From positions 1 to 43,401 of the IMG/VR virus record IMGVR_UViG_3300025372_000018: DNA of 43,401 bases. The stretch is one strand, 5' to 3'. A program made the position numbers and the translations under genes. The notes beneath the pieces were generated by a model that worked only from the letters and a program-made list of their open reading frames with translations, ran no database searches and had not been told where the DNA came from. The DNA comes from a virus. Lineage: Duplodnaviria; Caudoviricetes. How positions within the stretch are numbered: position 1 is the stretch's first letter; the number at the start of each line of letters is the position of its first letter. Shown here in pieces: positions 16,275 to 43,401 of this stretch.

Positions 16275-16302
16275 ATAAACAAACCACCTACTAGGAGCAG
16301 AT

Positions 16303-16551
16303 ATGCAAACACTACAAGACACAATCGCCATATGGGATAAGCAGATAGACGAGGAGCAGATGATTGGGTTTGTTCGTCTTCATGCCAATACAAACTACAA
16401 CAAGGGTTGGGATGTCATCGTGGAATGTTGGACAGATGGAGACATCCTTGAGTATCTATCTGAATCCAAGTTCGATATGGCTAAGACACTGAAAGCCATT
16501 CAGGACTGGATTGATCTACGGGATGAGATGGAAGATAACTGCCAGTTCTAA
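16303..16551 (+). CDS. Small acidic early protein
   Basis: 82 aa, HANTNYNKGWDVIVECW; CTAGGAG SD. Confidence 0.8.
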   Translation: MQTLQDTIAIWDKQIDEEQMIGFVRLHANTNYNKGWDVIVECWTDGDILEYLSESKFDMAKTLKAIQDWIDLRDEMEDNCQF

Positions 16552-16554
16552 CCA

Positions 16555-16606
16555 GTCAATCTGATGATGGGCTAATGCCCGAAACCTGAGAGATCAGGTC
16601 ATTGAC
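16555..16606 (+). ncRNA. Hammerhead ribozyme, type I (HH1)
   Basis: Stem I GUCAAU/AUUGAC; CUGAUGA plus one extra U; stem II GGGC-UAAU-GCCC; GAAA; stem III CCUGA-GAGA-UCAGG; GUC cleavage after 16600. Confidence 0.93.
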
Positions 16607-16626
16607 AACACTGCTAGGAGAAACAA

Positions 16627-16815
16627 ATGGAATCAACATTGTTAAAGAAGTTAGCTAAAGGTGAGTTCTTCAAACTCAAAGGGTCTGAGACTGCTCCAGT
16701 ATGGATGATTGACTATCGTGATGGTCATTTCATTCATGCCCACAAGTTTGATGATGTAAACCACACCAAAGTGTTTAAGCAAAACAAAGTAGTTTTCTTC
16801 GGCTTTACTTTCTAA
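16627..16815 (+). CDS. Small early protein
   Basis: 62 aa; SD within the ACTGCTAGGAG box. Confidence 0.8.
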   Translation: MESTLLKKLAKGEFFKLKGSETAPVWMIDYRDGHFIHAHKFDDVNHTKVFKQNKVVFFGFTF

Positions 16816-16824
16816 GGGGGATTT

Positions 16825-16941
16825 ATGGGAACACTAGAGCAACGCTACGCTATTTATCTCGCCTGTGCTGATGATGGCACTGGACATTCAATCACTGATG
16901 GCAAGCCACTGAAAACTTTTGAAGAGTGGTTGAATTCATAG
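16825..16941 (+). CDS. 38-aa peptide
   Basis: MGTLEQRYAIYLACADDGTGHSITDGKPLKTFEEWLNS; AAGGGGG SD; stop abuts HH2. Confidence 0.75.
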   Translation: MGTLEQRYAIYLACADDGTGHSITDGKPLKTFEEWLNS

Positions 16942-16990
16942 TCAAACTGATGAGCCTTTAATAGGCGAAACCCAGTGATGGGTCTTTGAC
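16941..16990 (+). ncRNA. Hammerhead ribozyme, type I (HH2)
   Basis: Stem I GUCAAA/UUUGAC; CUGAUGA; stem II GCCU-UUAAU-AGGC; GAAA; stem III CCCA-GUGA-UGGG; GUC cleavage after 16984. Confidence 0.95.
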
Positions 16991-17009
16991 AAACTGCTAG
17001 GAGTTCAAA

Positions 17010-17372
17010 TTGGAAACACAAACTGTAAAGAAAACAATCGACTTATCCCAGTTTTATGGCACTGAGTCGTATCACCGCACTAACCTGTTTACCCCTAACC
17101 TTGTTCACACTGATGGGGTTCAATACTTTGCTGATCAAGGTGGTTGCTACTGGTTCTTGGATATCGTTGCCAGTGAATACTATCCACTGTTAGCTAAAGA
17201 GCCACTGCTCTCCATCCAGTTAGCCGTTGAGGATGGGAAAGCAGATATCTGCGTGGAAGACGGGGATTGCAACATCATCAAGCAAAAGCATATTGCCCTA
17301 ACCGATTGCCCTGATGGGATGTATCGGTTCTTCCTGACTGACAATGTTCTGATGCTTACTTCGGAGTATTGA
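17010..17372 (+). CDS. DUF6876-like protein
   Basis: LSQFYGTESYH...TDGVQYFA...CYWFLDIVAS...LMLTSEY; TTG start after box SD. Confidence 0.7.
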   Translation: METQTVKKTIDLSQFYGTESYHRTNLFTPNLVHTDGVQYFADQGGCYWFLDIVASEYYPLLAKEPLLSIQLAVEDGKADICVEDGDCNIIKQKHIALTDCPDGMYRFFLTDNVLMLTSEY

Positions 17373-18127: not shown

Positions 18128-18700
18128 ATGGGATGGACTGGGACACAATGCTTTTTCAAAATCAGTCGCAAAGACTTTTTGATCAAAGAATTTACGCAAG
18201 AAAACGATACCCACAAATGGTGGCTAACCAATATCTCGATGCGTGGCAACACCGCATATTGCATTAGTTGGCAAGAGGAGAAAGCCACTGGGATCAAACA
18301 CCATGAGGGCATGGTTATCCTGACAGAGAAACGCAGAGAAGATCCTGACTGGATCTATTACAAGAATATGGGGGAGACTGTATTGCCCTATTACTTTGAT
18401 GCTCCCAAGAGCCTTATTACGACTCTTAACGCATTAGGTATGCCGTTCAATACAAGTGCTAAACAATGGCGAGAGCGATGCTTGGCAAATGCCAGTGTCA
18501 AGAAGCCAAAGTTGAAGTTTGGGGATGTTGTGAAGTTTGCCCATCCGATGTCATTCTCATTTTCTACTGGGAGGGTTGAAGAGGACACCTTTACCTATGT
18601 TGAATACGGGACAAAGAAAAATGTATTCAAGACCAGTCAAGGGCATCTTTGCCGTATATCAAAGTTAGCCAATAAAGAATTTACAGTTCTATCAAACTGA
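18128..18700 (+). CDS. DUF6927-like protein
   Basis: Start MGWTG; YKNMGETVLPYYFDAP...AKQWRERC; TGA stop lies inside the HH3 core. Confidence 0.65.
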   Translation: MGWTGTQCFFKISRKDFLIKEFTQENDTHKWWLTNISMRGNTAYCISWQEEKATGIKHHEGMVILTEKRREDPDWIYYKNMGETVLPYYFDAPKSLITTLNALGMPFNTSAKQWRERCLANASVKKPKLKFGDVVKFAHPMSFSFSTGRVEEDTFTYVEYGTKKNVFKTSQGHLCRISKLANKEFTVLSN

Positions 18701-18784
18701 TGAGCCAAGAGTAATGGCGAAACAAGTAAGTATGAGACCGCAAAGTCGTATGACGAGACCGCAAATTACTTACTTGTCTTTGAT
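18691..18784 (+). ncRNA. Hammerhead ribozyme, type I, extended stem III (HH3)
   Basis: Stem I AUCAAA/UUUGAU; CUGAUGA; stem II GCCA-AGAGUAA-UGGC; GAAA; stem III CAAGUAAGUA/UACUUACUUG with 34-nt insert; GUC cleavage after 18778. Confidence 0.93.
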
Positions 18785-18804
18785 TAACTGCTAGGAGAAT
18801 TAAC

Positions 18805-19272
18805 ATGGGTTTAGATATGTATTTAACCGCTAAGAAATACCTTTGGTCTGATGCCGATAAGGAGTTATCTGCCAAGATCAATGAAGCCATTGGAGTTGAG
18901 CCTGACTTTGAGAAACGATTTAATGGTTCGAGTTTGGTTGCTAAAGAGATATCACTGGATGCGATGTATTGGAGAAAAGCCAATGCCATTCATGGATGGT
19001 TCGTCAATGTTGTGCAAGACGGGGAGGATAACTGCCGAGAATATGAGGTAGATCGAGAACAGTTGGAGACACTGCGAGACTTGTGCAAAGACATCCTTGA
19101 GCATCCTGATGCTGAAAGGGAGACCGACTTAGAGCCGACTGAGGGATTCTTCTTTGGTTCTTACAAAAAAGACGAATGGTATTACGAAGACCTGAAGAAC
19201 ACTGTTGAGGGGTTGGATAAGGTTTTGGCATTACCTGACGAGTATTCATTTAGCTATCAAGCCAGTTGGTAA
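18805..19272 (+). CDS. Conserved phage protein (MGLDMY / YWRKANAIHGWF family)
   Basis: Hallmark motifs MGLDMYL, YWRKANAIHGWF, GFFFGS, YQASW; SD within box. Confidence 0.8.
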   Translation: MGLDMYLTAKKYLWSDADKELSAKINEAIGVEPDFEKRFNGSSLVAKEISLDAMYWRKANAIHGWFVNVVQDGEDNCREYEVDREQLETLRDLCKDILEHPDAERETDLEPTEGFFFGSYKKDEWYYEDLKNTVEGLDKVLALPDEYSFSYQASW

Positions 19273-26235: not shown

Positions 26236-26247
26236 CTCCTAGCAGTT
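26236..26247 (-). promoter_or_regulatory. AACTGCTAGGAG box overlapping SD of ParB-like gene
   Basis: Exact copy of the box found after HH2 and HH3. Confidence 0.75.
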
Positions 26248-26709: not shown

Positions 26710-27045
26710 CCATAGATAGCCCAAGGGTGATAAGCATCACACCTGACCCATTGTTGATAAAACAACCAGTCCTACACTGAGTTAATGTTCAATCGATGGA
26801 AAGTTTGTCTCACCGCTGGCCTTTCCGTCTTGTGTAGTCCCCATTTAAGGCTACGAGGCATAAACGGGGTGAATCGTCAGCCTATGTTCTCTTCCACGCA
26901 ACCCATGTAGGTTCTTACTAACGGATGGAGTCCGTCAATAGATAGCCGACAACAAAAGATAACGACCCATACCTTACGGCATATGTTGTTTACTTAAATT
27001 GTCTAGTGGAGATTGATTCAGCTTCACTATCGGCTAGCAGTTGAG
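26710..27045 (-). ncRNA. Candidate ~335-nt structured RNA / long leader
   Basis: No ORF in track; multiple stems whose G-U pairs only form on the minus strand; own promoter. Confidence 0.55.
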
Positions 27046-27050
27046 TCTGT

Positions 27051-27079
27051 AGGTTACTACGGCTAAAAATATTTTGCAA
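27051..27079 (-). promoter_or_regulatory. Sigma70-like promoter
   Basis: TTGCAA-17 nt-TAACCT; predicted start near 27044 at TCAACTGCTAG. Confidence 0.55.
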
Positions 27080-27083
27080 GCAC

Positions 27084-27118
27084 AAAAGAAAAGACCCCCA
27101 GGATTAGCTGGAGGTCTT
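27084..27118 (-). terminator. Rho-independent terminator of the sRNA
   Basis: AAGACCTCCAG-CTAATC-CTGGGGGTCTT then TTCTTTT; internal U-G pair is only possible on the minus strand. Confidence 0.85.
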
Positions 27119-27225
27119 GGTGTGATCGAGGGCGATCAACGGAGGGCTTGCCATTATTAGAGCACTCATCAACTGCTAGGCCAATAGGGACTAGAAATGG
27201 CAATGTCTATGGGGTAGACAGCACT
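27084..27225 (-). ncRNA. Candidate trans-acting antisense sRNA (~140 nt, four hairpins)
   Basis: Promoter and terminator flank UGUCUA/UAGACA, UUGCCAUU/AAUGGCAA and UGAUCG/CGAUCA stems; carries CCUAGCAGUU, the antisense of the RBS box. Confidence 0.7.
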
Positions 27226-27229
27226 AAGT

Positions 27230-27262
27230 ATAGTATAGATTGACCTAAAAATGTCAATAGGT
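27230..27262 (-). promoter_or_regulatory. Sigma70-like promoter of the sRNA
   Basis: TTGACA (27252-27257)-16 nt-TACTAT; ACCTATTGACAT shared with the 32.9-kb promoter. Confidence 0.6.
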
Positions 27263-27266
27263 TGAT

Positions 27267-27560
27267 TTATTTTGTATCAATTAGGTGGTTTTCAAACAAC
27301 CAACCTATTGTTTTGCGGTGAGCTTCCTCCCACATCTCAATCCTTTGGGATTTTGAGAGTTTCGTGCCTTGGTCGAGTTCCGAGTGGCATGAATAACAGA
27401 GGGCAGCGCACCTATAGTCATGTGCCTTAATTCCCCTACCTTTACCGTCTCGAAGCTGATTGGAATGTGCAGCCACAACTGTGCCGTCAGATCGACCACA
27501 CGCTTGGCATGGGGATTGCCGTAGTAAATCAAGGAGTTTCCTATTTCTATAAATCGTCAT
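27267..27560 (-). CDS. Zn-binding His-Me finger nuclease-like protein (DUF968/DUF1364-like)
   Basis: PCQACG...VVAAHSN...GRGIKAHD...ALCYSCH..LD. Confidence 0.7.
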   Translation of the reverse strand: MTIYRNRKLLDLLRQSPCQACGRSDGTVVAAHSNQLRDGKGRGIKAHDYRCAALCYSCHSELDQGTKLSKSQRIEMWEEAHRKTIGWLFENHLIDTK

Positions 27561-32890: not shown

Positions 32891-32946
32891 TCCTAGCAGT
32901 TAATCAGACTTTATTTTCACTGATATAATTAACCATGTCAATAGGT
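32891..32946 (-). promoter_or_regulatory. Promoter plus TGATTAACTGCTAGGA box
   Basis: TTGACA (32936-32941)-17 nt-GAAAAT (32913-32918); predicted start near 32906; 16-nt identity to the HH3 3' flank. Confidence 0.65.
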
Positions 32947-32970: not shown

Positions 32971-33312
32971 ATGAATACAGTAATTTTGCCCTGGCCTCCT
33001 AAAGAATTAAGCCCAAATTCCACATTACACTGGGCTAAGAAGGCTAAATTTAAGAAGGCTTATCGTCATACTTGCTGGGCGTTGACACTAGAAGCCAAGC
33101 TCACAGCTGACGGATTAGGGAAAATCCCTATTCTGATTACCTTTTATCCCCCAGATAAACGCCATCGGGATGCAGATAACATGGTTGCCAGCATCAAAGC
33201 TGGATTGGATGGCGTAGCAGATGCCCTAAAGATAAACGATAGGCAGTTTATGCCTACGTTTACCTTTTCAGATGAGGTTAAGGGAATGGTTAAAGTCCAG
33301 CTGACAGCCTGA
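32971..33312 (+). CDS. rusA: RusA-like Holliday junction resolvase
   Basis: LPWPP..LSPN, FYPPDKRHRDADNM...KAGLDGVADAL.IND. Confidence 0.8.
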   Translation: MNTVILPWPPKELSPNSTLHWAKKAKFKKAYRHTCWALTLEAKLTADGLGKIPILITFYPPDKRHRDADNMVASIKAGLDGVADALKINDRQFMPTFTFSDEVKGMVKVQLTA

Positions 33313-36300
33313 ACTTAATCGTCTGTTCCAGAATTTCTTCTTTTTTGTTCTTATAGAAGTTAATCTGTTTGCGTTTTTCGTCTGGAGACATCTGGGATGC
33401 TGGTAGATCCTCAATCCTACGAATCTGGGCATTGATATCAATTAGAGCTTTACCAGCTTGACCAGTAAATCCAGAGGCTTGTATTTCCCCTTTATGGTCG
33501 TTAAACCATTGTTGAGCTTCTTCTGGGTGTCCTTTTTTCATTAAATCTTTGAATGTGCCCATAGCAGTGTCAGAACGGGTCTTCAGGTCGTAGAAGAGGT
33601 CTTCCCTGCCTCGTGGTACTTCAGGAGCTACAAACGAGCCATAGAGGGGATTATTGCGTTCCTCTGGGCTTGCTTTGTGACCAGAGAATAGGTTAGATCC
33701 CCACATCGCAGCAGCAGCCACAGAACCGCCTAATCCACGCATGACGTGATCAGCTTGGATTGGGCTTAACATCCGATGCTCTTGGGAGCCTAGACCGCTG
33801 GCATAGCTAATCCACTTACCTAATTCAGAGGTGCTGCCGTTGTATTGACGGAAGGCAGCCAAGTCTTTCATGGATTGTGGAGTGACGTTACCGCCAGTGT
33901 AGAAGTCATGGTTTAGGGCTATCTCAGCAAATGGCTTGATGGCAGTAGGCACTGGACCCGATCCAAGTGGGCCAAGTAATGCATCCACTGCACCTTCCTT
34001 GAGAGCTTTACGCAATCTAGCATTGTCGATGGCATCTTTAGTACCCTCTTTAGTGATCTTGTTATAGAGCATCTCAGGGATAGACTTAAAGAAATAGCTG
34101 GCAGAAGTATGCATTGGGATGAGCAAGGTATGGTCATAGCCAATTGTCTTCATCATAGAACGAGGGATAACAAAGTTACGCATCTTTGTCTGGTCATCCA
34201 TCTTTTTGTATTCGTCATCATCACCAATCGCAAAGGCATATAACAGGCAAGTAGAAGCCAATAGACCGCTGGCAATAGCCAATCTGGTCATTGCTTGCTG
34301 ACGATCTAATCCTCTTAGACCACCGCTAATACTGGTAATTTTTTGACCTGTGAGCCTTTCTACACCACCAGCAATAGGCTCTGCCAATGCTTGGGTCAGC
34401 ACATCAATCTGCTGGGCATAGGCGTTCATAAACGCAATAGTCCTGTTGAGGAATTGAGCTGTTCTGCCCATGCCACGTTTGTCAAAGTCAATGACGTTAG
34501 TCGCTGCCAAAATTGCTTTACGCTGGTCTCCACCGCTTGGGAAACCGCCAGTCTCTTTCATTACACGCACATAGACGGCTCTACGCTGGGCAAAGTCTGA
34601 GGCATCGGCAATCTGGTCAAGGATGCTGGTCACTCTGGCAAAGGCTGATTTATTCAATAAACCAATTTCTTGCTTGTATTGATGCTCTGCTGTTCTAGCA
34701 CCAGAGTGATAACCGCCAATACCGTAAGACTTGAGCAACTCAACCACTTCATCTTTTTGAGTCAAGCCTTTAGCAAATGAACCAAACACACCGCCAAACA
34801 ATGCTAATGGGTTCTTCACGCCAGTCACGATGGCAGCTGTTGGAGCATCCATGAAAAGCTGTTTAAGCTGGAATACACCAGAGAAAGTAATCGATCTACG
34901 CAAACCGTTAGCAAAGTAAGCCATGATCTCGTTCATTGGAATCTGGATATTCTCAATACCAATCACGGACTGGGCAATCAATGGGTCAGCAATTTGGATG
35001 TTGACCTTTCTGCCACTAATCAAAATCTTAACGATGCCACGAGCTGCATCTTCTTTAGGGAAGACTTTGAGCTTGCCGTTCTCATTACGAGTGCCATACT
35101 CCTGGGCAATACGGTTAGCTGCATAGTTCTTAATGGCGTTACGAGTAGTCACCATGACGTTGTGAAGCATATTGTCTACGATGTCATCGATGTCTAAATC
35201 AACCTTACCTTCTTTGAAACGATGCTCTCTGGCTACGTTCTTGACACCTTTAGAGCTATAGATTGGGGTATGAACGTCTGTTTGATCATCCATAATCCGC
35301 TGCCAAGGCACATAATCTTCGATGTTACGCAAGGTATCAGCACGTTGTTTGCTGATCATGCGAGCTTGTTCCATCATGTCAATCATGTTCTTGTTAACAG
35401 CGTTCCAGTTATCCATCATTTTTCTAAGTTCTGGATACTGTTTGTCTAGCTTGCTAAAGTCATCGATAGCTTCATCGGACATATTGACTTTTTGCAAGGC
35501 AATACCGATGTTTTTAAAGTCTTGTTCGGCATCAGCAATCTTGTCCAAAAGCAATAGCTGACGGTCTGGTGAAGTACTTGGATCCATCTGCTCTGTTCTT
35601 AGCATCTCCAATTCGCCTTCACGCTTGAGGTATTCATCCACAATAGAACGTGAACGCTTGGCTTCAAAGTAGGCTTGGATGACGTTGGCAGCACGTTGAA
35701 CGCCAATTTCTTTCTCTAACTGGTGCTTCAAGGTCAGAATATTAGCCATCGAGAACTTGTCTTGAACGGCATGGAACATCTGATTGGTGTTATCAAAGAC
35801 TAACTTACCCAGCATGATGACCTGAGTACCAATACGAGTAGCCTTCAGAGCTTGGTTCATAGCCACAGAAGCCACAGCACGACCTTCGCTGTCCTCTAAC
35901 ATACGACCATAACGGGTTGCATCGGCAGCTGTCAAACCAGCTGTAAAGTCTGTTGTCTTGATACGAGTAGCCAACACTGCACGATCTAAGTTGCCAACCA
36001 TGTTGTTAACAGCAAGGCGTGGTGACTCGACCATCTTCGCACCAATATTCTTGGCTTCTTGAGCACCGCCCAAGAACTTATCCATCACACCGTTAGAAGT
36101 ATGGATAGGAGCATCATTGCGATTGTGCTTGGCTAGTAACTCATCAGTCTTCTCAACGCTGTAGAGGAACTTAGTCTTATATGGTCCTGAACTAATCAGG
36201 TCTACCAACATGGTCTTATGAGTTCTTGGTGTCTCGCCTTTGATTAAATCATTGAAGGCTTTGTAAACTGAATGGGTATTGTTAAAACCAAACAGCTTCT

Positions 36301-39300
36301 TCATTGCCTCAAATACTTGACGGATGGCGTTAACATAACGACCCCAAGGAGTTCCCATACGAGTGCCAAATAGCTTTTCAGCGTTGACAGCCCAGAACTC
36401 TGATGGATTGATGTATTGGTACATATCCTGTGAAGGCAACAACTCCATCGCCTTTTCAAAGTTCTTCTCGCTTGGATCGTTGACGTAATCGATTACCGCC
36501 ATGAAATACTTTTGAGACACTTCATCAGTGTTCTTCTTGATGGCTTTCTCAAGGGCTGCTCTCCAAGATTCAACAATTGCTTGCTGGGTCTGTGGATCCA
36601 TCATCTGCTCAAGTGTATGCATCAACTCATGTCGAATAGTGCCAGGATTAACAGCTCCTGATTCCTTGTATAGCCTGACGATACGCTCTAGATTATTAAA
36701 TACGCCAGCAGCTGTGTAGGCTGCGTTCTGTGGGGCTTGCTTAACGGATAAGCGTAGACCAGTCAGGATAGCTGGGGATTGTCTGTAGATGTATTGGATA
36801 ACGTCTAAGACATCCTTGCTGATATTGCCTTTGTTGTATTCGTTAAGGGCACGAGCCATAAACGCTTCAGGCGTAATCTTCTTCTCAGCAGTCATCTTCT
36901 TGTCGGCTGCCAACTCTTTAGCAAGCTGATCAAGGTAAGTTAACTCACGCTGAGTATTGATTGTGGTCTCGCCTTTGATGACTTCACGCTTAATCTTGGT
37001 AATGCCACGCCTTACACGAGCCAACTCATCTGTTTTAGCTTTGTGAATCTGGGCAATTTGCTCTCTTAGATTTTTAGGAATCACGCTTGGATTTAGCTTT
37101 GGAATATGAGCGTAATTGGTTAAAGTAAATCCATCTTCATGGGCTTTACGGTCATATTCAATAGCTTTAGCAGGACTTAAAATACCGTTCTCTGATTCAG
37201 CACCGTTGTAATAATCAATAGCAACTGGCAAGTATTTAAAGCCTAGCTCTTTTGCTGCCATGATTCGATGGTTTCCTTCATTTACATAAGGAGTGCCATC
37301 TTGGTAAACATTGATATATGGGGTGTAATGGGTTTTACCATCTTTCTCAAATGGCAAATGGTTTTTCTCGCCCATGTAATCCATTAAGGATTTCAAATCT
37401 GCAACTCTTACATTGCGTTGCTCATCATTTATACCTTGCATTTTTGCAAGAACATCAACTGGAACAAGCATTTTGCGAACTGGTGAGTTTGTTACACCCT
37501 CTTTTGTTCTGAAATAAGCTGTTGCAGAACCAAATCTATATGGAACGCCATATGATTTTCTGCCATCTTCCCTAGATAATTGACGTTTGTGTTCTAGCCA
37601 ATTTCCACCTGGGTTATCTGTAATCATATAAACAGGAGGAACTTTTGGCTGATACATCACGCTTGGAGTAACAGTCGCTTTGGGTGGAGCAAACATCTCT
37701 CTGGCTTTGTCTCTAGGACTAGAGGCAATCAGAGTGTCACCACGCTCATTCAGGATAAAGTCAATCGCTTTGGCAGCCTGTTGCTCATTACCTCTGGCAT
37801 ACATAGTGTTGCCAGACTTATAGAAGTCACTAGTAATATCAGTCAAACCTCGGTCTAGGAAGTATGTACCGCCTTCTTTCTTAGAGCTTGGGACATTGAA
37901 TTGATACTGGTTGCCATAGCTAGACTTGGTAATCCGCAATACATTATCGGCAGAAGTAATTACACCGTTTACTTCATTCATAAACCGCATAGCATCGGCA
38001 GCTGACCGCAGACGGATAGGAGCTTCACGAGCAGCCTTTTCAAAGTCATAAGTGCGTGGCATGAGAATACCCTGACCAGTAGTGCCGTCAGCTTTGGTAT
38101 AGCTCATAATCTGACCCTGATTCTTTACCGCATCAGAAGCAAATCCAGCCAAAATATTGCCTGTAACCATCCAGCGTTTCTCACGCCTGACGTTAGAACC
38201 TTTGTCAAACAAGTCAGTTAACGGAATGTTCTCTGCTTGCTGGGTATCTGGGTTGTACCAGTTAATGTAATTCTCTTGGTTTAATTGATAAGTGCTGCCA
38301 ATCTGGGAGAAGTTAATCGTAATGGCTTTTGCATCACCGTTAGCCAAAGCAATATGCATTTTCCAGTCTGAGCCAGCAACAGGGTTAGCAGTCTTCTTTT
38401 TATTTTCTAAATCAGTCACAACACCATAGACAAAGATGCCTTGGTTATTCTTAATAGAAATTGGCTGACCTACTGCATAGTTTTCCAAAATAGACTTGAT
38501 GTGCTGATACTGAAGATTTAATTGACCCTTGGCAGCATCAATACGGACTTCATCTGCACCTTTTTCTTTCAGGTTCTCAATTTGTTTTCTACCGTATTCG
38601 GCTGCACGTTCTCTTACACCATCCATGAGCTTGTCAACTTTTTGGCGTTGTGTTCCACCTTCCAAGTTCTCACTCACCATTTCCTGAACTTCTTGTTTGG
38701 TGTATGGCTTAACAGTACGTTTAACGTCTACCTTTTCCATGTAAGCTGGTTGAGCAAACAAGGATGGATCACCTTTATCTGGGGTAATAGGCACGGCTGA
38801 TAGAGTCTCAGCATCAAGGTCAACAGCTTTAGCTTCGAGCTTATTGGTTCCCATGCTGTTCTCACGCTCAACTAAATCGTTGTAACGATCAATCAGATCC
38901 TTATAAATTTCTTCCTGTTCTTTAATTGGCAGGATAGGAATGTAGCCAGTCAATCTACGGATATCATCTTCTTTAGCATCGGTTGGGTCTTCTATAAGAT
39001 CTACAACCTTTTTACCGCCAATAGCTTCGTGAACCTCTGGGTTATCACGCAAGTATTCCTGTGCAATCTGACCACCGTAGTCATTCATAAAGTCCACAGC
39101 ACCTTCGGCTGTAACGGCAGACTTACGGGAAGCTGTCGTATTGGCGTTCAAGGAAGCCATCTTCTTGAGCAATACCGCAGCTGGCCTCATCTCCGCTGGG
39201 ATGTCAGCCATCATTTGTGAGTAAGCTGGAGCTACAACTTGACCAGTACGATGCACACGACCAAGCATCTGCATATGGGTATCAATGTTCTTTTCAGGCT

Positions 39301-42300
39301 GAACAATGATCATGTGGCGTTTGCGTTGATCTTTAAAGCTAGAGGATGCGTGTAATGACAAGCCAGTAGAACCAGCTTGGTTCAGGATAATGACATCGGC
39401 TGTGCCATTGTTAAATGCACGAACAGCACCAACACGCTGTTTAATATTGGCAGAACGAGAAGTAAGGATTGGTGTGCCACTCTCATAGTTAAGGGTCACT
39501 GTACGACCAGTAATCTCTTCTGTCTTATACCCAGCTTTACGCAACTCATTGTGCATATAGTCAATTGGGGAGATTGGAGCTGAACCAAAACCAGCATTTT
39601 CAATAAATGTCTTAATTTGGTTATAGGCTGCCAAACGCTCTGGACCAAGATCTTGATCGGTCATACGGTATTGTTGTACGCCATTCGGTCCTTTGATCTT
39701 GAGCATCCGTTGCTTTTCCAAGTAACGCAGATACAGATCTTTAAAGGTCAGATTGACTGGATCACCTACGTTGATGCCCATTTCATCAGCATAACTTTGT
39801 AAGAATGAACCCATCGTATTGGAAACGGTCATTACGACCTTCTCGCCATTCTTTAGGCTTTCCACAGCGTGTTTGATAGAGTCCTGGGCTTTTAATGACA
39901 AAAGCATCTGGTCAATCAAGTTATGCATGATGGCACCAAAGTTTGCACTTTGGATCTGGGTCTTCTCACCTTCGATACTTGCTCTACCGCCAGACTTGTC
40001 AAACTCCTTTTGCATCTCTTTGACAACGGCTTCTTTAGAACGGGAGAACGCCAAGATGTCACGCATCGAGGTAGCCATGTTCTCAGCTGTCTGCTTATCG
40101 ACCTTTGTCTCTTGGGTCTGATAACTTACACCAGCAAAGGTTCTTTCCCTGCGAATATATTGACCGACTTTGGTCAGCATATTGGCAACAATCTGTTGCA
40201 TTGGAATACCGCCTAGCTTGATGGCATCGGCTAATTCATTGATGTTATCAACCGCTAACTTCATGTCTGTGCTGGAATACAAGTCCATCACATCAGGGCG
40301 TTTAGCGTAGGTAGCTGACGAGAAGAACGTACCAAAGGCGTTATCTACCAAGTCACGGACAAAGGCTGCACGACCAGTGGCTAGGCTCTTGCCTTCCTTT
40401 TGGGATTCTCTTTGTTCTTTGCTACGGGCTTGGGTTTCACCAGCACCACCAGCGTTATGACTTTCGTCAAAAATCATGTAGTTGCCAAGACCAAACGATT
40501 TAATAAAGCGTTGGCGTTCTGTTTCGTTTTTCTTAACAGCTTGCAACTGGCTATAGGTAGTAAAGATTACCTTGTAATCGCCAAGGCTTTCTTTCTCTTG
40601 CATACCCTTCATCATCTCGTCTAATGCTTTGCCAGTCTTAGGAGCTTTGAGGGTAAGGTTGTTTTCTGTTACTTCGCCATTAACAGTGCGGAGCAAGGTA
40701 TAAGGAATAGATTCACTAGAGTTAGTGATAAAGATGCGTGGTTTGGCTGTATCTAGTCCTAACTCTTTGGTCATACCGATATCATCCAAGTCACGGATCA
40801 TGTCGGAGTAAAGGTTTGGCTTCTCTGTAACAAAGATAGGTACTTTGTCATTCTCGATGGCGTACTTGATCATCGCAGCAACAACACGACCTTTACCAAT
40901 ACCAGTCTGGTCTCCAATAATGAAGCCTTTGCCAGCTTCAGCATTACGGATAGCCAAAACCAAGGCATCAATTTGTTCAGCGGAGAACTTCTCACGCAGG
41001 GTCTCTGGATCCATGTGCAGGGCTTCTGCTACATATTCATCCACATCACCGACTTCACGCTCTACGGCTGAAATAGAGTTATCAATGGATTCTGCCATTG
41101 CTTTAGGAACAAGCGTTCCTACAGAAGCAGCTTGTGAATGAGGCTCGTAACCTACTTGATGACCAGTTTCTGTTTCCTGACCTCTACGGTCTTTTAATCC
41201 AGACTCGACTCGTGTACCTGAGACAACGCTAGGTCCACCCACTGGGCTAGGCTCGTTTCCTGCAATGCCTTTTCTGCCACTGGGTTGCTGCTCTCCACCT
41301 TCGCTGGGAACGGGTCCTCGATTGATGCCACGTTCAGGTTCGTTAGCAAGTCTAGGTTGTCCTGCACTAACACCTGCCCCAGCTGGTTCGGGTTGTCCAC
41401 GTTTGCTAGGCTCATTCTCAGACACGCCTCGTCTGCCGCCTTCTGTGGGTCGCTCTCCTTCAGCACCAGCTTCACGACCTTGTCCGCTAGGGCGTTCACC
41501 CACTGGTTCTGGTTTAGGCTCCCCTGCGGTACGCTCACTGACGTTAGTTCTGGTGGGGCTGACATTTTCTCTGGAAACCACGCTAGGTTCATTTAACTTC
41601 TCCTTGAGTTCTTCGTATGAGGTAATTTGCTGTGGGAGTTCCGCAGCTGGTAAGGCTCTTTGTGACTGACCTTTTCCATCAATAACAATGACATCTACAG
41701 GGTAAGAAGCTCCCTGTTTACTGTACATATCCCCAGCTACGGAGAAATGGTCAACTACGTTGTAATCTTTGTAGAGGTTGTAATAAAACTCTCGTTTTGC
41801 TTTTTGACGATATCCTTCACGCCTTGCATCTTCGCCTTCAGCACGAACACCGCCTAGGATCAATACGGCTCTGCCATTAGCTGGCATATCATTTAAAGCT
41901 TTGTATGAAATAGCATGATCTATTTCTCTAGTGGTTTTTCCATAAACATGAAATTCTTCGCCAATAGAACCAAAAGGAGGGTTGGCAATGACTACATCGA
42001 CAGGATTTATGGATTTAAGAACTGCATTTTCATTAGATACTTTTGCACCTGGAAGCACCTTTTTGAGCATTTCATAACGGCTAGTATTGAGTTCGTTCAC
42101 CGTAACATTGTTAGGGTTAGAAGCTATCAACAACATTCCGTTACCGCCAGTAGGCTCGTAAACCGTTGTTTTATCAGTAATTCCTGCTAGTTGCGATGCA
42201 ACATAAGCCAATGGAGCTGGGGTGGAATAAGCCTGTTCTCTAACACTGGTAGAACTTCTGACAGCCAAATTAGGCTGACGGTTGTATAGATTTACCAAGC

Positions 42301-43401
42301 CATCATAGATTTCGCTTGGCTTTCTGTTCTTATGGGCAATGTTCTGGGCAGCCAATACGACACCCACTTCCACAGCCTCATCAGCTTGTTTGGCAGCCAT
42401 CGTGCCAGCTTCAATCTTTTGACCAGTCAAATCGGCAATGAATCTACGGGCTTCGTTGATATCTTTAAAGCCTAGACCACCCATGAAATGCTTAGAAATA
42501 GCTTGTGCAATATGGAACTTGCCATCTTCTGTATTGAGGTCAAGAGTACCTTTTGGCTCTTCAGCCTTTTCTAGCTCATCCAAAGATTCAACTTCAACCA
42601 CTTCTTTCTTGGAGCTGGCTTCTGGATAGTTAGCAGACATACCAATATAAGCACCTTGTAGGTGATTAAGATTGATTTTGTCAGCAACGTCTTTACCAAA
42701 CTTCTCAAGAATCATGTCCCTGACAAACTTGGCAGCCTGTTTGAACTTGTGATAGCCCATACGGAACGCAGCATCCATTAACCTAGTAAGGATAGGCATC
42801 AAGCGTTGCTCATCCTCTGGCATCATATTCATACGGGTTGGCTTAGTAGCCAGCCATGCGAGATCTGCTAATGCATCCTCTAGGTCTTGTTTGGCTTGCG
42901 CTTCAGGAGATAGATTCTCTGGGGCAACAGTAGGCGCTGCTATAGGAGCTTCTGCACCAGTTATTTGAGGAATAAACTTGGCAAATAAGGCTTTTTGGTC
43001 TTCAGCACTCATGCTAGGAGCCATTGGCTTCTTAGCTTCACGAATGTTATTAAGCAACTGATTACCTTTTGGTAATAGCTCTAACTTGCCATTTGGATTC
43101 TCTTTAACCAGTTCATTTGCTTTCAAAAGCTTAATAGCATCTTCAGAAGCAATAGCTGGATTAGGTTTTTCATTGTTCATTGCATAGATAATTCCTTGAT
43201 GGAATTCGTGCAATGGAACTTCTTCTGCATTTACACCACGCAACTCTTTTTCTGTTGCTTTCTCTTGAGGTGTCTTTGCCCTTTGTGCAGCTTGGCGTTC
43301 TTGGTTTATTTGAGCTTGAGTTTTTTCCTCAGTTTCTGGTGCAACTTCTTCAGCTGCTGCTTCAGTTTCTGCAACAGGCTTTTCTTCAGTGGGAACTTCG
43401 G
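33290..43401 (-). CDS. Giant polyvalent (DarB-like) protein: N6-adenine MTase, Strawberry-notch SF2 helicase, ParB-like, zincin, LPD38-like; 5' end outside window
   Basis: Frame stays open past 43243 to the window end; EPTGGNG and ANPPF; GDQTGIGKGR, DESH, SSAT, QMLGRVHR; EGNHR; HELMH...EFWA. Confidence 0.88.
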   Translation of the reverse strand, partial: EVPTEEKPVAETEAAAEEVAPETEEKTQAQINQERQAAQRAKTPQEKATEKELRGVNAEEVPLHEFHQGIIYAMNNEKPNPAIASEDAIKLLKANELVKENPNGKLELLPKGNQLLNNIREAKKPMAPSMSAEDQKALFAKFIPQITGAEAPIAAPTVAPENLSPEAQAKQDLEDALADLAWLATKPTRMNMMPEDEQRLMPILTRLMDAAFRMGYHKFKQAAKFVRDMILEKFGKDVADKINLNHLQGAYIGMSANYPEASSKKEVVEVESLDELEKAEEPKGTLDLNTEDGKFHIAQAISKHFMGGLGFKDINEARRFIADLTGQKIEAGTMAAKQADEAVEVGVVLAAQNIAHKNRKPSEIYDGLVNLYNRQPNLAVRSSTSVREQAYSTPAPLAYVASQLAGITDKTTVYEPTGGNGMLLIASNPNNVTVNELNTSRYEMLKKVLPGAKVSNENAVLKSINPVDVVIANPPFGSIGEEFHVYGKTTREIDHAISYKALNDMPANGRAVLILGGVRAEGEDARREGYRQKAKREFYYNLYKDYNVVDHFSVAGDMYSKQGASYPVDVIVIDGKGQSQRALPAAELPQQITSYEELKEKLNEPSVVSRENVSPTRTNVSERTAGEPKPEPVGERPSGQGREAGAEGERPTEGGRRGVSENEPSKRGQPEPAGAGVSAGQPRLANEPERGINRGPVPSEGGEQQPSGRKGIAGNEPSPVGGPSVVSGTRVESGLKDRRGQETETGHQVGYEPHSQAASVGTLVPKAMAESIDNSISAVEREVGDVDEYVAEALHMDPETLREKFSAEQIDALVLAIRNAEAGKGFIIGDQTGIGKGRVVAAMIKYAIENDKVPIFVTEKPNLYSDMIRDLDDIGMTKELGLDTAKPRIFITNSSESIPYTLLRTVNGEVTENNLTLKAPKTGKALDEMMKGMQEKESLGDYKVIFTTYSQLQAVKKNETERQRFIKSFGLGNYMIFDESHNAGGAGETQARSKEQRESQKEGKSLATGRAAFVRDLVDNAFGTFFSSATYAKRPDVMDLYSSTDMKLAVDNINELADAIKLGGIPMQQIVANMLTKVGQYIRRERTFAGVSYQTQETKVDKQTAENMATSMRDILAFSRSKEAVVKEMQKEFDKSGGRASIEGEKTQIQSANFGAIMHNLIDQMLLSLKAQDSIKHAVESLKNGEKVVMTVSNTMGSFLQSYADEMGINVGDPVNLTFKDLYLRYLEKQRMLKIKGPNGVQQYRMTDQDLGPERLAAYNQIKTFIENAGFGSAPISPIDYMHNELRKAGYKTEEITGRTVTLNYESGTPILTSRSANIKQRVGAVRAFNNGTADVIILNQAGSTGLSLHASSSFKDQRKRHMIIVQPEKNIDTHMQMLGRVHRTGQVVAPAYSQMMADIPAEMRPAAVLLKKMASLNANTTASRKSAVTAEGAVDFMNDYGGQIAQEYLRDNPEVHEAIGGKKVVDLIEDPTDAKEDDIRRLTGYIPILPIKEQEEIYKDLIDRYNDLVERENSMGTNKLEAKAVDLDAETLSAVPITPDKGDPSLFAQPAYMEKVDVKRTVKPYTKQEVQEMVSENLEGGTQRQKVDKLMDGVRERAAEYGRKQIENLKEKGADEVRIDAAKGQLNLQYQHIKSILENYAVGQPISIKNNQGIFVYGVVTDLENKKKTANPVAGSDWKMHIALANGDAKAITINFSQIGSTYQLNQENYINWYNPDTQQAENIPLTDLFDKGSNVRREKRWMVTGNILAGFASDAVKNQGQIMSYTKADGTTGQGILMPRTYDFEKAAREAPIRLRSAADAMRFMNEVNGVITSADNVLRITKSSYGNQYQFNVPSSKKEGGTYFLDRGLTDITSDFYKSGNTMYARGNEQQAAKAIDFILNERGDTLIASSPRDKAREMFAPPKATVTPSVMYQPKVPPVYMITDNPGGNWLEHKRQLSREDGRKSYGVPYRFGSATAYFRTKEGVTNSPVRKMLVPVDVLAKMQGINDEQRNVRVADLKSLMDYMGEKNHLPFEKDGKTHYTPYINVYQDGTPYVNEGNHRIMAAKELGFKYLPVAIDYYNGAESENGILSPAKAIEYDRKAHEDGFTLTNYAHIPKLNPSVIPKNLREQIAQIHKAKTDELARVRRGITKIKREVIKGETTINTQRELTYLDQLAKELAADKKMTAEKKITPEAFMARALNEYNKGNISKDVLDVIQYIYRQSPAILTGLRLSVKQAPQNAAYTAAGVFNNLERIVRLYKESGAVNPGTIRHELMHTLEQMMDPQTQQAIVESWRAALEKAIKKNTDEVSQKYFMAVIDYVNDPSEKNFEKAMELLPSQDMYQYINPSEFWAVNAEKLFGTRMGTPWGRYVNAIRQVFEAMKKLFGFNNTHSVYKAFNDLIKGETPRTHKTMLVDLISSGPYKTKFLYSVEKTDELLAKHNRNDAPIHTSNGVMDKFLGGAQEAKNIGAKMVESPRLAVNNMVGNLDRAVLATRIKTTDFTAGLTAADATRYGRMLEDSEGRAVASVAMNQALKATRIGTQVIMLGKLVFDNTNQMFHAVQDKFSMANILTLKHQLEKEIGVQRAANVIQAYFEAKRSRSIVDEYLKREGELEMLRTEQMDPSTSPDRQLLLLDKIADAEQDFKNIGIALQKVNMSDEAIDDFSKLDKQYPELRKMMDNWNAVNKNMIDMMEQARMISKQRADTLRNIEDYVPWQRIMDDQTDVHTPIYSSKGVKNVAREHRFKEGKVDLDIDDIVDNMLHNVMVTTRNAIKNYAANRIAQEYGTRNENGKLKVFPKEDAARGIVKILISGRKVNIQIADPLIAQSVIGIENIQIPMNEIMAYFANGLRRSITFSGVFQLKQLFMDAPTAAIVTGVKNPLALFGGVFGSFAKGLTQKDEVVELLKSYGIGGYHSGARTAEHQYKQEIGLLNKSAFARVTSILDQIADASDFAQRRAVYVRVMKETGGFPSGGDQRKAILAATNVIDFDKRGMGRTAQFLNRTIAFMNAYAQQIDVLTQALAEPIAGGVERLTGQKITSISGGLRGLDRQQAMTRLAIASGLLASTCLLYAFAIGDDDEYKKMDDQTKMRNFVIPRSMMKTIGYDHTLLIPMHTSASYFFKSIPEMLYNKITKEGTKDAIDNARLRKALKEGAVDALLGPLGSGPVPTAIKPFAEIALNHDFYTGGNVTPQSMKDLAAFRQYNGSTSELGKWISYASGLGSQEHRMLSPIQADHVMRGLGGSVAAAAMWGSNLFSGHKASPEERNNPLYGSFVAPEVPRGREDLFYDLKTRSDTAMGTFKDLMKKGHPEEAQQWFNDHKGEIQASGFTGQAGKALIDINAQIRRIEDLPASQMSPDEKRKQINFYKNKKEEILEQTIKFRLSAGL
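37080..37667. repeat. 12-bp direct repeat ATCACGCTTGGA bracketing the ParB-like domain
   Basis: Copies at 37080-37091 and 37656-37667, both in frame (PSVI and PSVM). Confidence 0.6.
41194..41592 (-). CDS. Nested out-of-frame gene inside the giant protein linker
   Basis: AAGGAG (41600-41605) 7 nt before ATG; 132-aa amphipathic-helical sequence. Confidence 0.65.
   Translation of the reverse strand: MNLAWFPEKMSAPPELTSVSVPQGSLNQNQWVNALADKVVKLVLKESDPQKAADEACLRMSLANVDNPNQLGQVLVQDNLDLLTNLNVASIEDPFPAKVESSNPVAEKALQETSLAQWVDLALSQVHESSLD

Follow-up and report, generated by a model that had tools for sequence, protein, structure and literature searches.

The predicted small RNA described here, S, likely switches its targets off and carries an identity code of the lock-and-key kind. 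It probably acts in trans as a two-module antisense RNA that damps early and replication functions of its phage, through short boxes at ribosome-binding sites and through a predicted neighbouring transcript, T. The window, i.e. the whole stretch of 43,401 nucleotides that was analysed, is a phage record of 43.4 kb in which terminase, portal and major head genes were identified, together with helicase, primase-like, ParB-like, exonuclease and ERF genes. Neither an integrase nor an antirepressor was found among the PHROGs matches of its 73 ORFs, and its close relatives are uncultured, being known as contigs from IMG/VR and metagenomes. A 3,317-aa protein encoded at 33290-43243 (minus strand) carries strawberry-notch-like helicase, methyltransferase-like and LPD38 domains.

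The S unit is confirmed. The initial annotation had described a minus-strand unit with a TTGACA promoter, four hairpins and an intrinsic terminator, and all of these were recovered by promoter and terminator scans and by folding. The promoter (27227..27257, minus strand) has its -35 TTGACA at 27257-27252 and, by homology, its -10 TATACT at 27232-27227, with a 19-nt spacer; TACTAT, which the scan offered as the -10, was dropped because homology points to TATACT. In relatives, S is preceded by the same promoter arrangement. The predicted RNA of about 135 nt (27084..27221, minus strand, both ends predicted) comprises a 5' hairpin, a seed hairpin (27148..27203), a small hairpin and an intrinsic terminator (27084..27118) with its stem at 27118-27091 and a U-rich tail. 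The fold, four hairpins including the terminator, has an energy of -43.7 kcal/mol (z -3.6), equalled by none of 200 shuffles. Within the seed hairpin, a constant core, CCUAGCAG (27180-27173), bears the loop CUAGCA, closed by AUUGGC/GUUGAU, and a variable specificity arm (about 27200-27181) lies on the 5' side; both are on the minus strand. The seed had been described as centred on an apical loop, and CUAGCA is indeed so displayed in the window fold, as is the seed in 35 of 43 distinct S sequences, compared with 9% of flank shuffles. S has no match in Rfam.

The HNH-like (YbcO/DUF968-like) gene that adjoins S upstream (27267..27560, minus strand) served as a seed-independent anchor for following S through related phages. 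It gave 247 loci with 194 distinct downstream regions, 54 of which were carried forward as S units; L280 and L347, which have a seed-like 6-mer and no unit, and the incomplete L319 were left out by eye before the co-variation test. The 54 units retain promoter, 5' hairpin, seed hairpin and terminator despite very different stem sequences. Because S units were first chosen by their seed, a search was also run with a profile of the region 3' of the seed, the seed itself being excluded: the seed lay upstream in 32 of the 32 top matches, and weaker matches included seed variants and a second seed class. The terminator shows two-sided changes at five of eight consensus pairs. A sequence-only alignment of S yields a consensus fold for the terminator alone, so that conservation of the seed stem rests on single-sequence folds. 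Three loci (L194, L208 and L218) carry an extra, shorter unit, in which the same seed precedes a terminator, apart from the HNH-linked S. An exact scan of viral contigs with the 15-mer seed returned 88 stretches, with the box pattern only at the window's near copy, and was judged to reflect chance.

The 9-mer box that the seed complements occurs six times in the window, against 0.27 in shuffles, with none of 100 shuffles reaching six. Five copies are sense, each overlapping a Shine-Dalgarno sequence, and one is antisense; this sole antisense copy lies inside S, as the initial annotation had noticed, every other copy being strictly sense. Three sense boxes are on the plus strand behind hammerhead ribozymes: at 16610..16618, the ribosome-binding site of ORF 16627-16815 (behind hammerhead 1, 9 nt of pairing), at 16993..17001, that of ORF 17010-17372 (DUF6876; behind hammerhead 2, 10 nt), and at 18787..18795, that of ORF 18805-19272 (behind hammerhead 3, 13 nt with one G-U). 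The remaining two are on the minus strand. The box at 26238..26246 follows a -10-like hexamer and serves the ParB-like gene (26228-25416; 11 nt of pairing), which heads the helicase and primase genes, as ribosome-binding site; that at 32892..32900 follows a TTGACA promoter and forms the ribosome-binding site of ORF 32883-32662 (13 nt, one G-U), which heads exonuclease, ERF and SSB-like genes. A variant box (16287..16295, plus strand) stands before ORF 16303-16551, the first early gene; it has a central mismatch to the seed and pairs with it poorly (duplex -9.9).

Pairing of 9-13 nt had been claimed for six sense boxes. For the five ribosome-binding sites this range stands; the sixth, an 8-mer copy at 27041, is instead the 5' end of T, where pairing extends over about 20 nt. 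The targets predicted for S in the window, T and the five boxes, lie at distances of up to 10 kb. The seed covers the AGG of the Shine-Dalgarno sequence, as had been stated, and the whole AGGAG is covered in 18 of 46 distinct S sequences. When duplexes with the seed region are compared, three window boxes beat all 65 other starts and two rank in the top four. In whole-molecule cofolding, the boxes behind hammerheads 1 and 2 (-7.1 and -8.3) and that of the ParB-like gene (-8.6) fall inside the range of the 65 other starts (best -15.7), and some non-box sites score as high as boxes in a seed-region scan of the window genome.

Among relatives, 24 S-bearing loci (380 kb) contain 62 boxes, 54 of them before an ORF; the 78 loci that lack S (1,201 kb) contain 14, three of them before an ORF. 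These counts exclude the loci fetched by hammerhead plus box and the window's copy, and kinship among the loci and the limited length of sequence fetched confound the co-occurrence of S and box; the HNH tree is poorly resolved and too weak for counting independent gains. Stronger evidence than this co-occurrence, within a single lineage, is the co-change of seed and box in L407/L412, where the seed is CCUAGCGG and ORF starts carry the box CGCUAGGA in 8 of 8 and 6 of 7 cases, the remaining one being pairable through G-U. In loci with the ordinary seed, CT precedes the box core at 79 of 102 sites and CC at 3. One case is discordant: L410/L255 has the ordinary seed and its single box is the C variant. 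A wider scan for hammerhead-linked box variants gave no further variant (19 stretches, the sole new-contig locus being unrelated). The initial annotation had named covariation of seed and box in related phages as a check on its proposal, and a compensatory change is found in this one lineage. Its central idea, that an antisense RNA acts in trans on a ribosome-binding box shared by several genes, is thereby supported, as it is by the conserved loop-displayed seed and by boxes that are dense with S and nearly absent without it.

Two other parts of the original proposal concern the hammerheads, which lie on the plus strand at 16555..16606 (hammerhead 1), 16941..16990 (hammerhead 2) and 18691..18784 (hammerhead 3), with cuts predicted after 16600, 16984 and 18778, respectively. 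The conserved core, three stems and GUC cut site are present in all three; cleavage itself is predicted. A strict pattern finds elements 2 and 3 and misses element 1, whose CUGAUGA core is followed by an additional U; hammerhead 2 also gives a weak Rfam match to HH9 (E 0.68, below gathering). The extra-U variant (window 16561-16584, plus strand) also occurs in L010, between core and stem II. The three window boxes behind these elements are located 9-10 nt past the predicted cuts. Across relatives, 29 distinct strict hammerheads were found in 32 S-bearing loci and none in 79 loci without S. A box follows 9-13 nt past the cut in 23 of the 29, a partly selected figure, since 7 of these 32 loci came from a hammerhead-box pattern search; the other six have no box. 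In L150, L157, L211 and L219, S is present, yet the ribosome-binding site behind the hammerhead has no box.

Cleavage had been proposed to expose the target leaders. As stated, this is not supported, the predicted accessibility of the box after the cut not being higher in two of three cases (unpaired probability from uncut to cut: 0.71 to 0.58, 0.54 to 0.36 and 0.63 to 0.69). Nor do the ribozymes appear to be a necessary part, as had been implied: promoters precede two of the five boxes in the window and 24 of the 54 in relatives, and L407/L412 has S and boxes with the strict hammerhead absent. In an unselected set of 54 box starts, 13 come after a hammerhead cut and 24 after a -10 hexamer, the corresponding numbers for 389 other starts being 3 and 9; the box start lies 7-14 nt behind the cut or hexamer in 37 of 54 cases versus 12 of 389. 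Since box starts follow either cuts or -10 hexamers and accessibility is not raised, the feature common to the boxes is closeness to a predicted RNA 5' end, and hammerheads are one of two routes that place a box there. RNase III-like hairpins were considered as a third source of 5' ends and rejected, not being enriched (21/101 vs 233/620). Before some boxes (L112, L139, L185, L199, L204, L218, L222 and L240) a long conserved hairpin of about 20 bp takes the place of the hammerhead and by eye resembles an RNase III site. Near position 2752 of L186, a box-containing leader is tandemly duplicated.

T, overlooked by the initial annotation, is the best-supported of the predicted targets and the one with the strongest co-evolution with S. 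A second promoter (TTGCAA-17-TAACCT; 27051..27079, minus strand) lies just past the S terminator and provides its predicted start. TTGC(A/C/G) and a -10-like hexamer occupy this position in relatives; a consensus promoter scan of the window did not pick it up. The 5' end of T (27027..27046, minus strand) is a site of about 20 nt, without a Shine-Dalgarno sequence, that is complementary to both the core and the arm of S (duplex -30.4 kcal/mol). T is predicted to fold back on itself (26935..27047, minus strand; z -2.7, 3 of 200 shuffles as good), its 3' arm re-pairing with the S target site, and relatives share this fold.

The arm of S is hypervariable, with about 32 types among 38 non-redundant pairs of arm and T, and the two sides vary together. 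Cognate pairs score -32.0 kcal/mol versus -21.7 for non-cognate ones; once the shared core is subtracted the values are -15.1 and -8.2 kcal/mol, and none of 100,000 permutations was as good. In the core-free ranking the cognate T takes first place in 19 of 38 cases and one of the first three places in 27; for the window's own arm, the rank is 20 of 38 without the core and 6 with it. For sister pairs taken from the HNH tree, the cognate combination beats the swapped one in 14 of 14, one of them by just 0.2 kcal/mol, with L012/L299 and two L125-group pairs falling in unresolved forks. The T site is missing in 12 of 54 S-bearing loci, and S/T pairing is weak in L310, L139 and L112/L342. In L006 and L356, T equals that of L005 or L174 and S differs; these loci are possible recombinants or escape types. 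Predicted binding of S is far stronger to a 35-nt nascent T (mean -23.9) than to a folded T of 130 nt (-8.5; n=31). A U-run follows the T hairpin in just 2 of 38 cases, which makes simple attenuation unlikely. Inspection by eye revealed on T/X (X being the element behind T) no conserved small hydrophobic ORF, the feature of a type I toxin-antitoxin target: short ORFs in the T of relatives are frame-discordant, and element X carries one-base indels.

Directly behind the fold-back lies element X (26711..26934, minus strand), a structured, conserved and covarying sequence of about 225 nt with two-sided changes at 16 of 37 predicted pairs in 23 sequences. Its core motif has 75 IMG/VR matches and X itself has none in Rfam. 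In bacterial genomes the core motif gave 1/301 at one mismatch, with one for the control too, and BLAST gave 0/2; the cultured phages searched gave one partial match, from an environmental record. The slot that X fills in the window is occupied by the Betaproteobacteria-1 RNA (Rfam RF02932) in L010 (2754-2870), L222 (10545-10664) and L240 (10556-10672), and by two further conserved sequences, unmatched in Rfam, in L002-type and L236-type loci. The element behind the 3' arm of T is exchangeable in this sense, and the genes 3' of X are variable. As a pointer to the host, the Betaproteobacteria-1 RNA in three relatives is only a hint. X is also widespread in phages without S (L101-L175), where it often comes after a cro-like gene and an attenuator-like long hairpin that has both a U-run and an alternative 5' pairing. 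By eye, hairpins with closing U-G pairs recur in X, and two pseudoknots involving co-varying bases are possible.

The second seed class (L276, L283, L296, L269 and L165) has a different core and a UC-rich loop, the S-T-X layout being retained. In these loci T begins with a GA-rich match and no clear box set was seen; the cognate T is best in two of four rows and second in the other two.

The favoured interpretation is as follows. The constant loop of S would base-pair with five early, recombination and replication messages at the box, thereby blocking their ribosome-binding sites. On T, the variable arm would lengthen the pairing at the 5' end to about 20 nt. By analogy with IS10, the loop may catch its targets near a free 5' end, as RNA-OUT does, a free end allowing the loop-bound seed to complete a helix; hammerhead cleavage would supply internal cistrons with such an end. 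On T, S could bind the nascent RNA before the fold-back closes and alter how the structured element that follows is folded or processed. The arm would set phage-specific recognition and define types of immunity or incompatibility. Overall, early and replication functions would be damped once S accumulates, and S may contribute to immunity or help to end the early phase. A more extended version, in which the hammerheads license internal genes, one small RNA silences the early set and the arm is a code gating X, the whole forming a protein-free repressor or immunity circuit, is tentative and stands at rather less than even chances.

RNA-OUT of IS10 is encoded opposite its single target. According to the portion of PMC4737173 available, its hairpin loop engages the free 5' tail of RNA-IN and thereby blocks the ribosome-binding site, and S resembles it in the predicted geometry, its loop site lying near the target's 5' end (37 of 54 boxes). 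Unlike RNA-OUT, S is trans-encoded and has several predicted targets, some with 5' ends that would be made by hammerheads.

It seems unlikely, albeit conceivable, that T is instead a decoy whose longer complementarity soaks up S and frees the box-bearing messages. T does have its own predicted promoter with the S target at its start, binds S more strongly than most boxes do and, in the window, lacks a Shine-Dalgarno sequence at this site; moreover, S and boxes persist in the 12 loci without a T site, and phage-encoded decoys such as AgvB are known (PMC12197685, as far as its available part describes them). A decoy is, however, difficult to reconcile with a fold-back that buries the S site and lowers predicted binding, with the large conserved element that always lies behind T, or with the second seed class, which retains S and T without an evident box set.

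An improbable alternative places the primary role of S in replication: T-X would be a primer or origin RNA, S a regulator of copy number or incompatibility comparable to RNA I of ColE1, and the boxes a secondary add-on. In that plasmid, as summarised in the part of PMC5415839 at hand, RNA I binds the 5' end of the long structured RNA II and changes its fold, and variable pairing sets incompatibility. S would share this logic of 5'-end binding and variable pairing, since the transcript whose 5' end it would pair with is long, structured and non-coding and lies near the ParB-like, helicase and primase genes, its predicted binding favours nascent RNA and its arm is hypervariable. RNA I is nevertheless cis-encoded, whereas S is not encoded opposite T, the two lying in tandem on the same strand. 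The phage has its own primase-like protein, the genes behind X vary, and the GC skew of the window tracks gene strand with no origin marked near T-X.

Activation has also been considered, and is quite improbable as a general account. S would open the T fold-back for downstream folding or read-through, and box pairing would stabilise 5' ends. Covering a Shine-Dalgarno sequence usually blocks initiation, and the coverage of AGG by the seed, extending to the whole AGGAG in the 18 sequences mentioned above, speaks against this at the boxes; activation may apply to T even with the boxes repressed. The predicted competition of S with the 3' arm of T, which abuts X or the Betaproteobacteria-1 RNA, is consistent with such a mechanism. 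The prophage RNA IsrK of Gifsy-1 acts in trans on a structured leader and activates through strand exchange of this kind (PMC4825925); as described in the excerpt of that source, it targets its own longer isoform and activates translation, and a conserved ORF was not seen in T or X.

Finally, it is highly improbable that a protein binds the box or that the box is a leader which enhances translation, the antisense copy being a functionless leftover of an inverted duplication, for although duplication of promoters or leaders can yield shared leader boxes and the cofold energies are unremarkable for three boxes, a leftover accounts poorly for the loop display in 35 of 43 sequences, the co-change of seed and box, the co-variation of arm and T over about 32 types, the dedicated promoter and terminator of S and the strictly sense orientation of all other copies.

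The preferred reading, antisense repression by S, brings it close to known phage regulators. P4 CI and P1/P7 c4 display their seeds in loops, silence at ribosome-binding sites or leaders and confer sequence-specific heteroimmunity, according to the sections of PMC4825925 and PMC12197685 at hand. Like these RNAs (Rfam C4, RF01695), S is encoded apart from its target sites and displays its seed in a loop, and its seed specificity changes together with the target. In the window nothing matches the Rfam C4 model, whether at the gathering threshold or at E values of up to 2. C4 and CI are processed from a longer transcript with target sites on both sides; unlike them, S has its own promoter and terminator, is apparently a primary transcript and has no upstream copy. 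Its sole nearby target, T, stands behind a second promoter, and its predicted targets are spread over five other transcripts in addition to T. As regards function, C4 and CI govern the translation of an antirepressor or prematurely terminate a replication operon; in the window, the PHROGs matches lack an antirepressor, replication genes lie downstream, and a U-run after T is found in the 2 of 38 cases already given. By the features tested, S is not a member of the C4/CI group, though it would work like one.

Several hammerheads flank single phage genes; the proposal is that they divide long transcripts into mRNAs the size of a gene (PMC3088659; Perreault et al. 2011). The part of that account at hand mentions no shared downstream box or antisense partner for such clustered hammerheads; here, a box lies behind 23 of 29. 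A literature search by title and abstract, partial in coverage and with some supplements outside its scope, did not find the combination of S, box, hammerhead and T. Five motif strings were absent from six supplementary files of PMC10690425, the other three files lying outside the search. The S system is considered to be a new variant of phage antisense control.

The purpose of hammerhead clusters in phages is open, as the portion of PMC3088659 at hand presents it, and the S system makes one answer testable: if it is true, phage hammerheads would have a concrete regulatory job. S would separate a seed shared by a regulon from a fast-changing identity arm, and the approximately 32 natural lock-and-key types could serve as orthogonal RNA switches. 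By linking a regulator to the structured RNAs X and Betaproteobacteria-1, the system may also offer a handle on their role.
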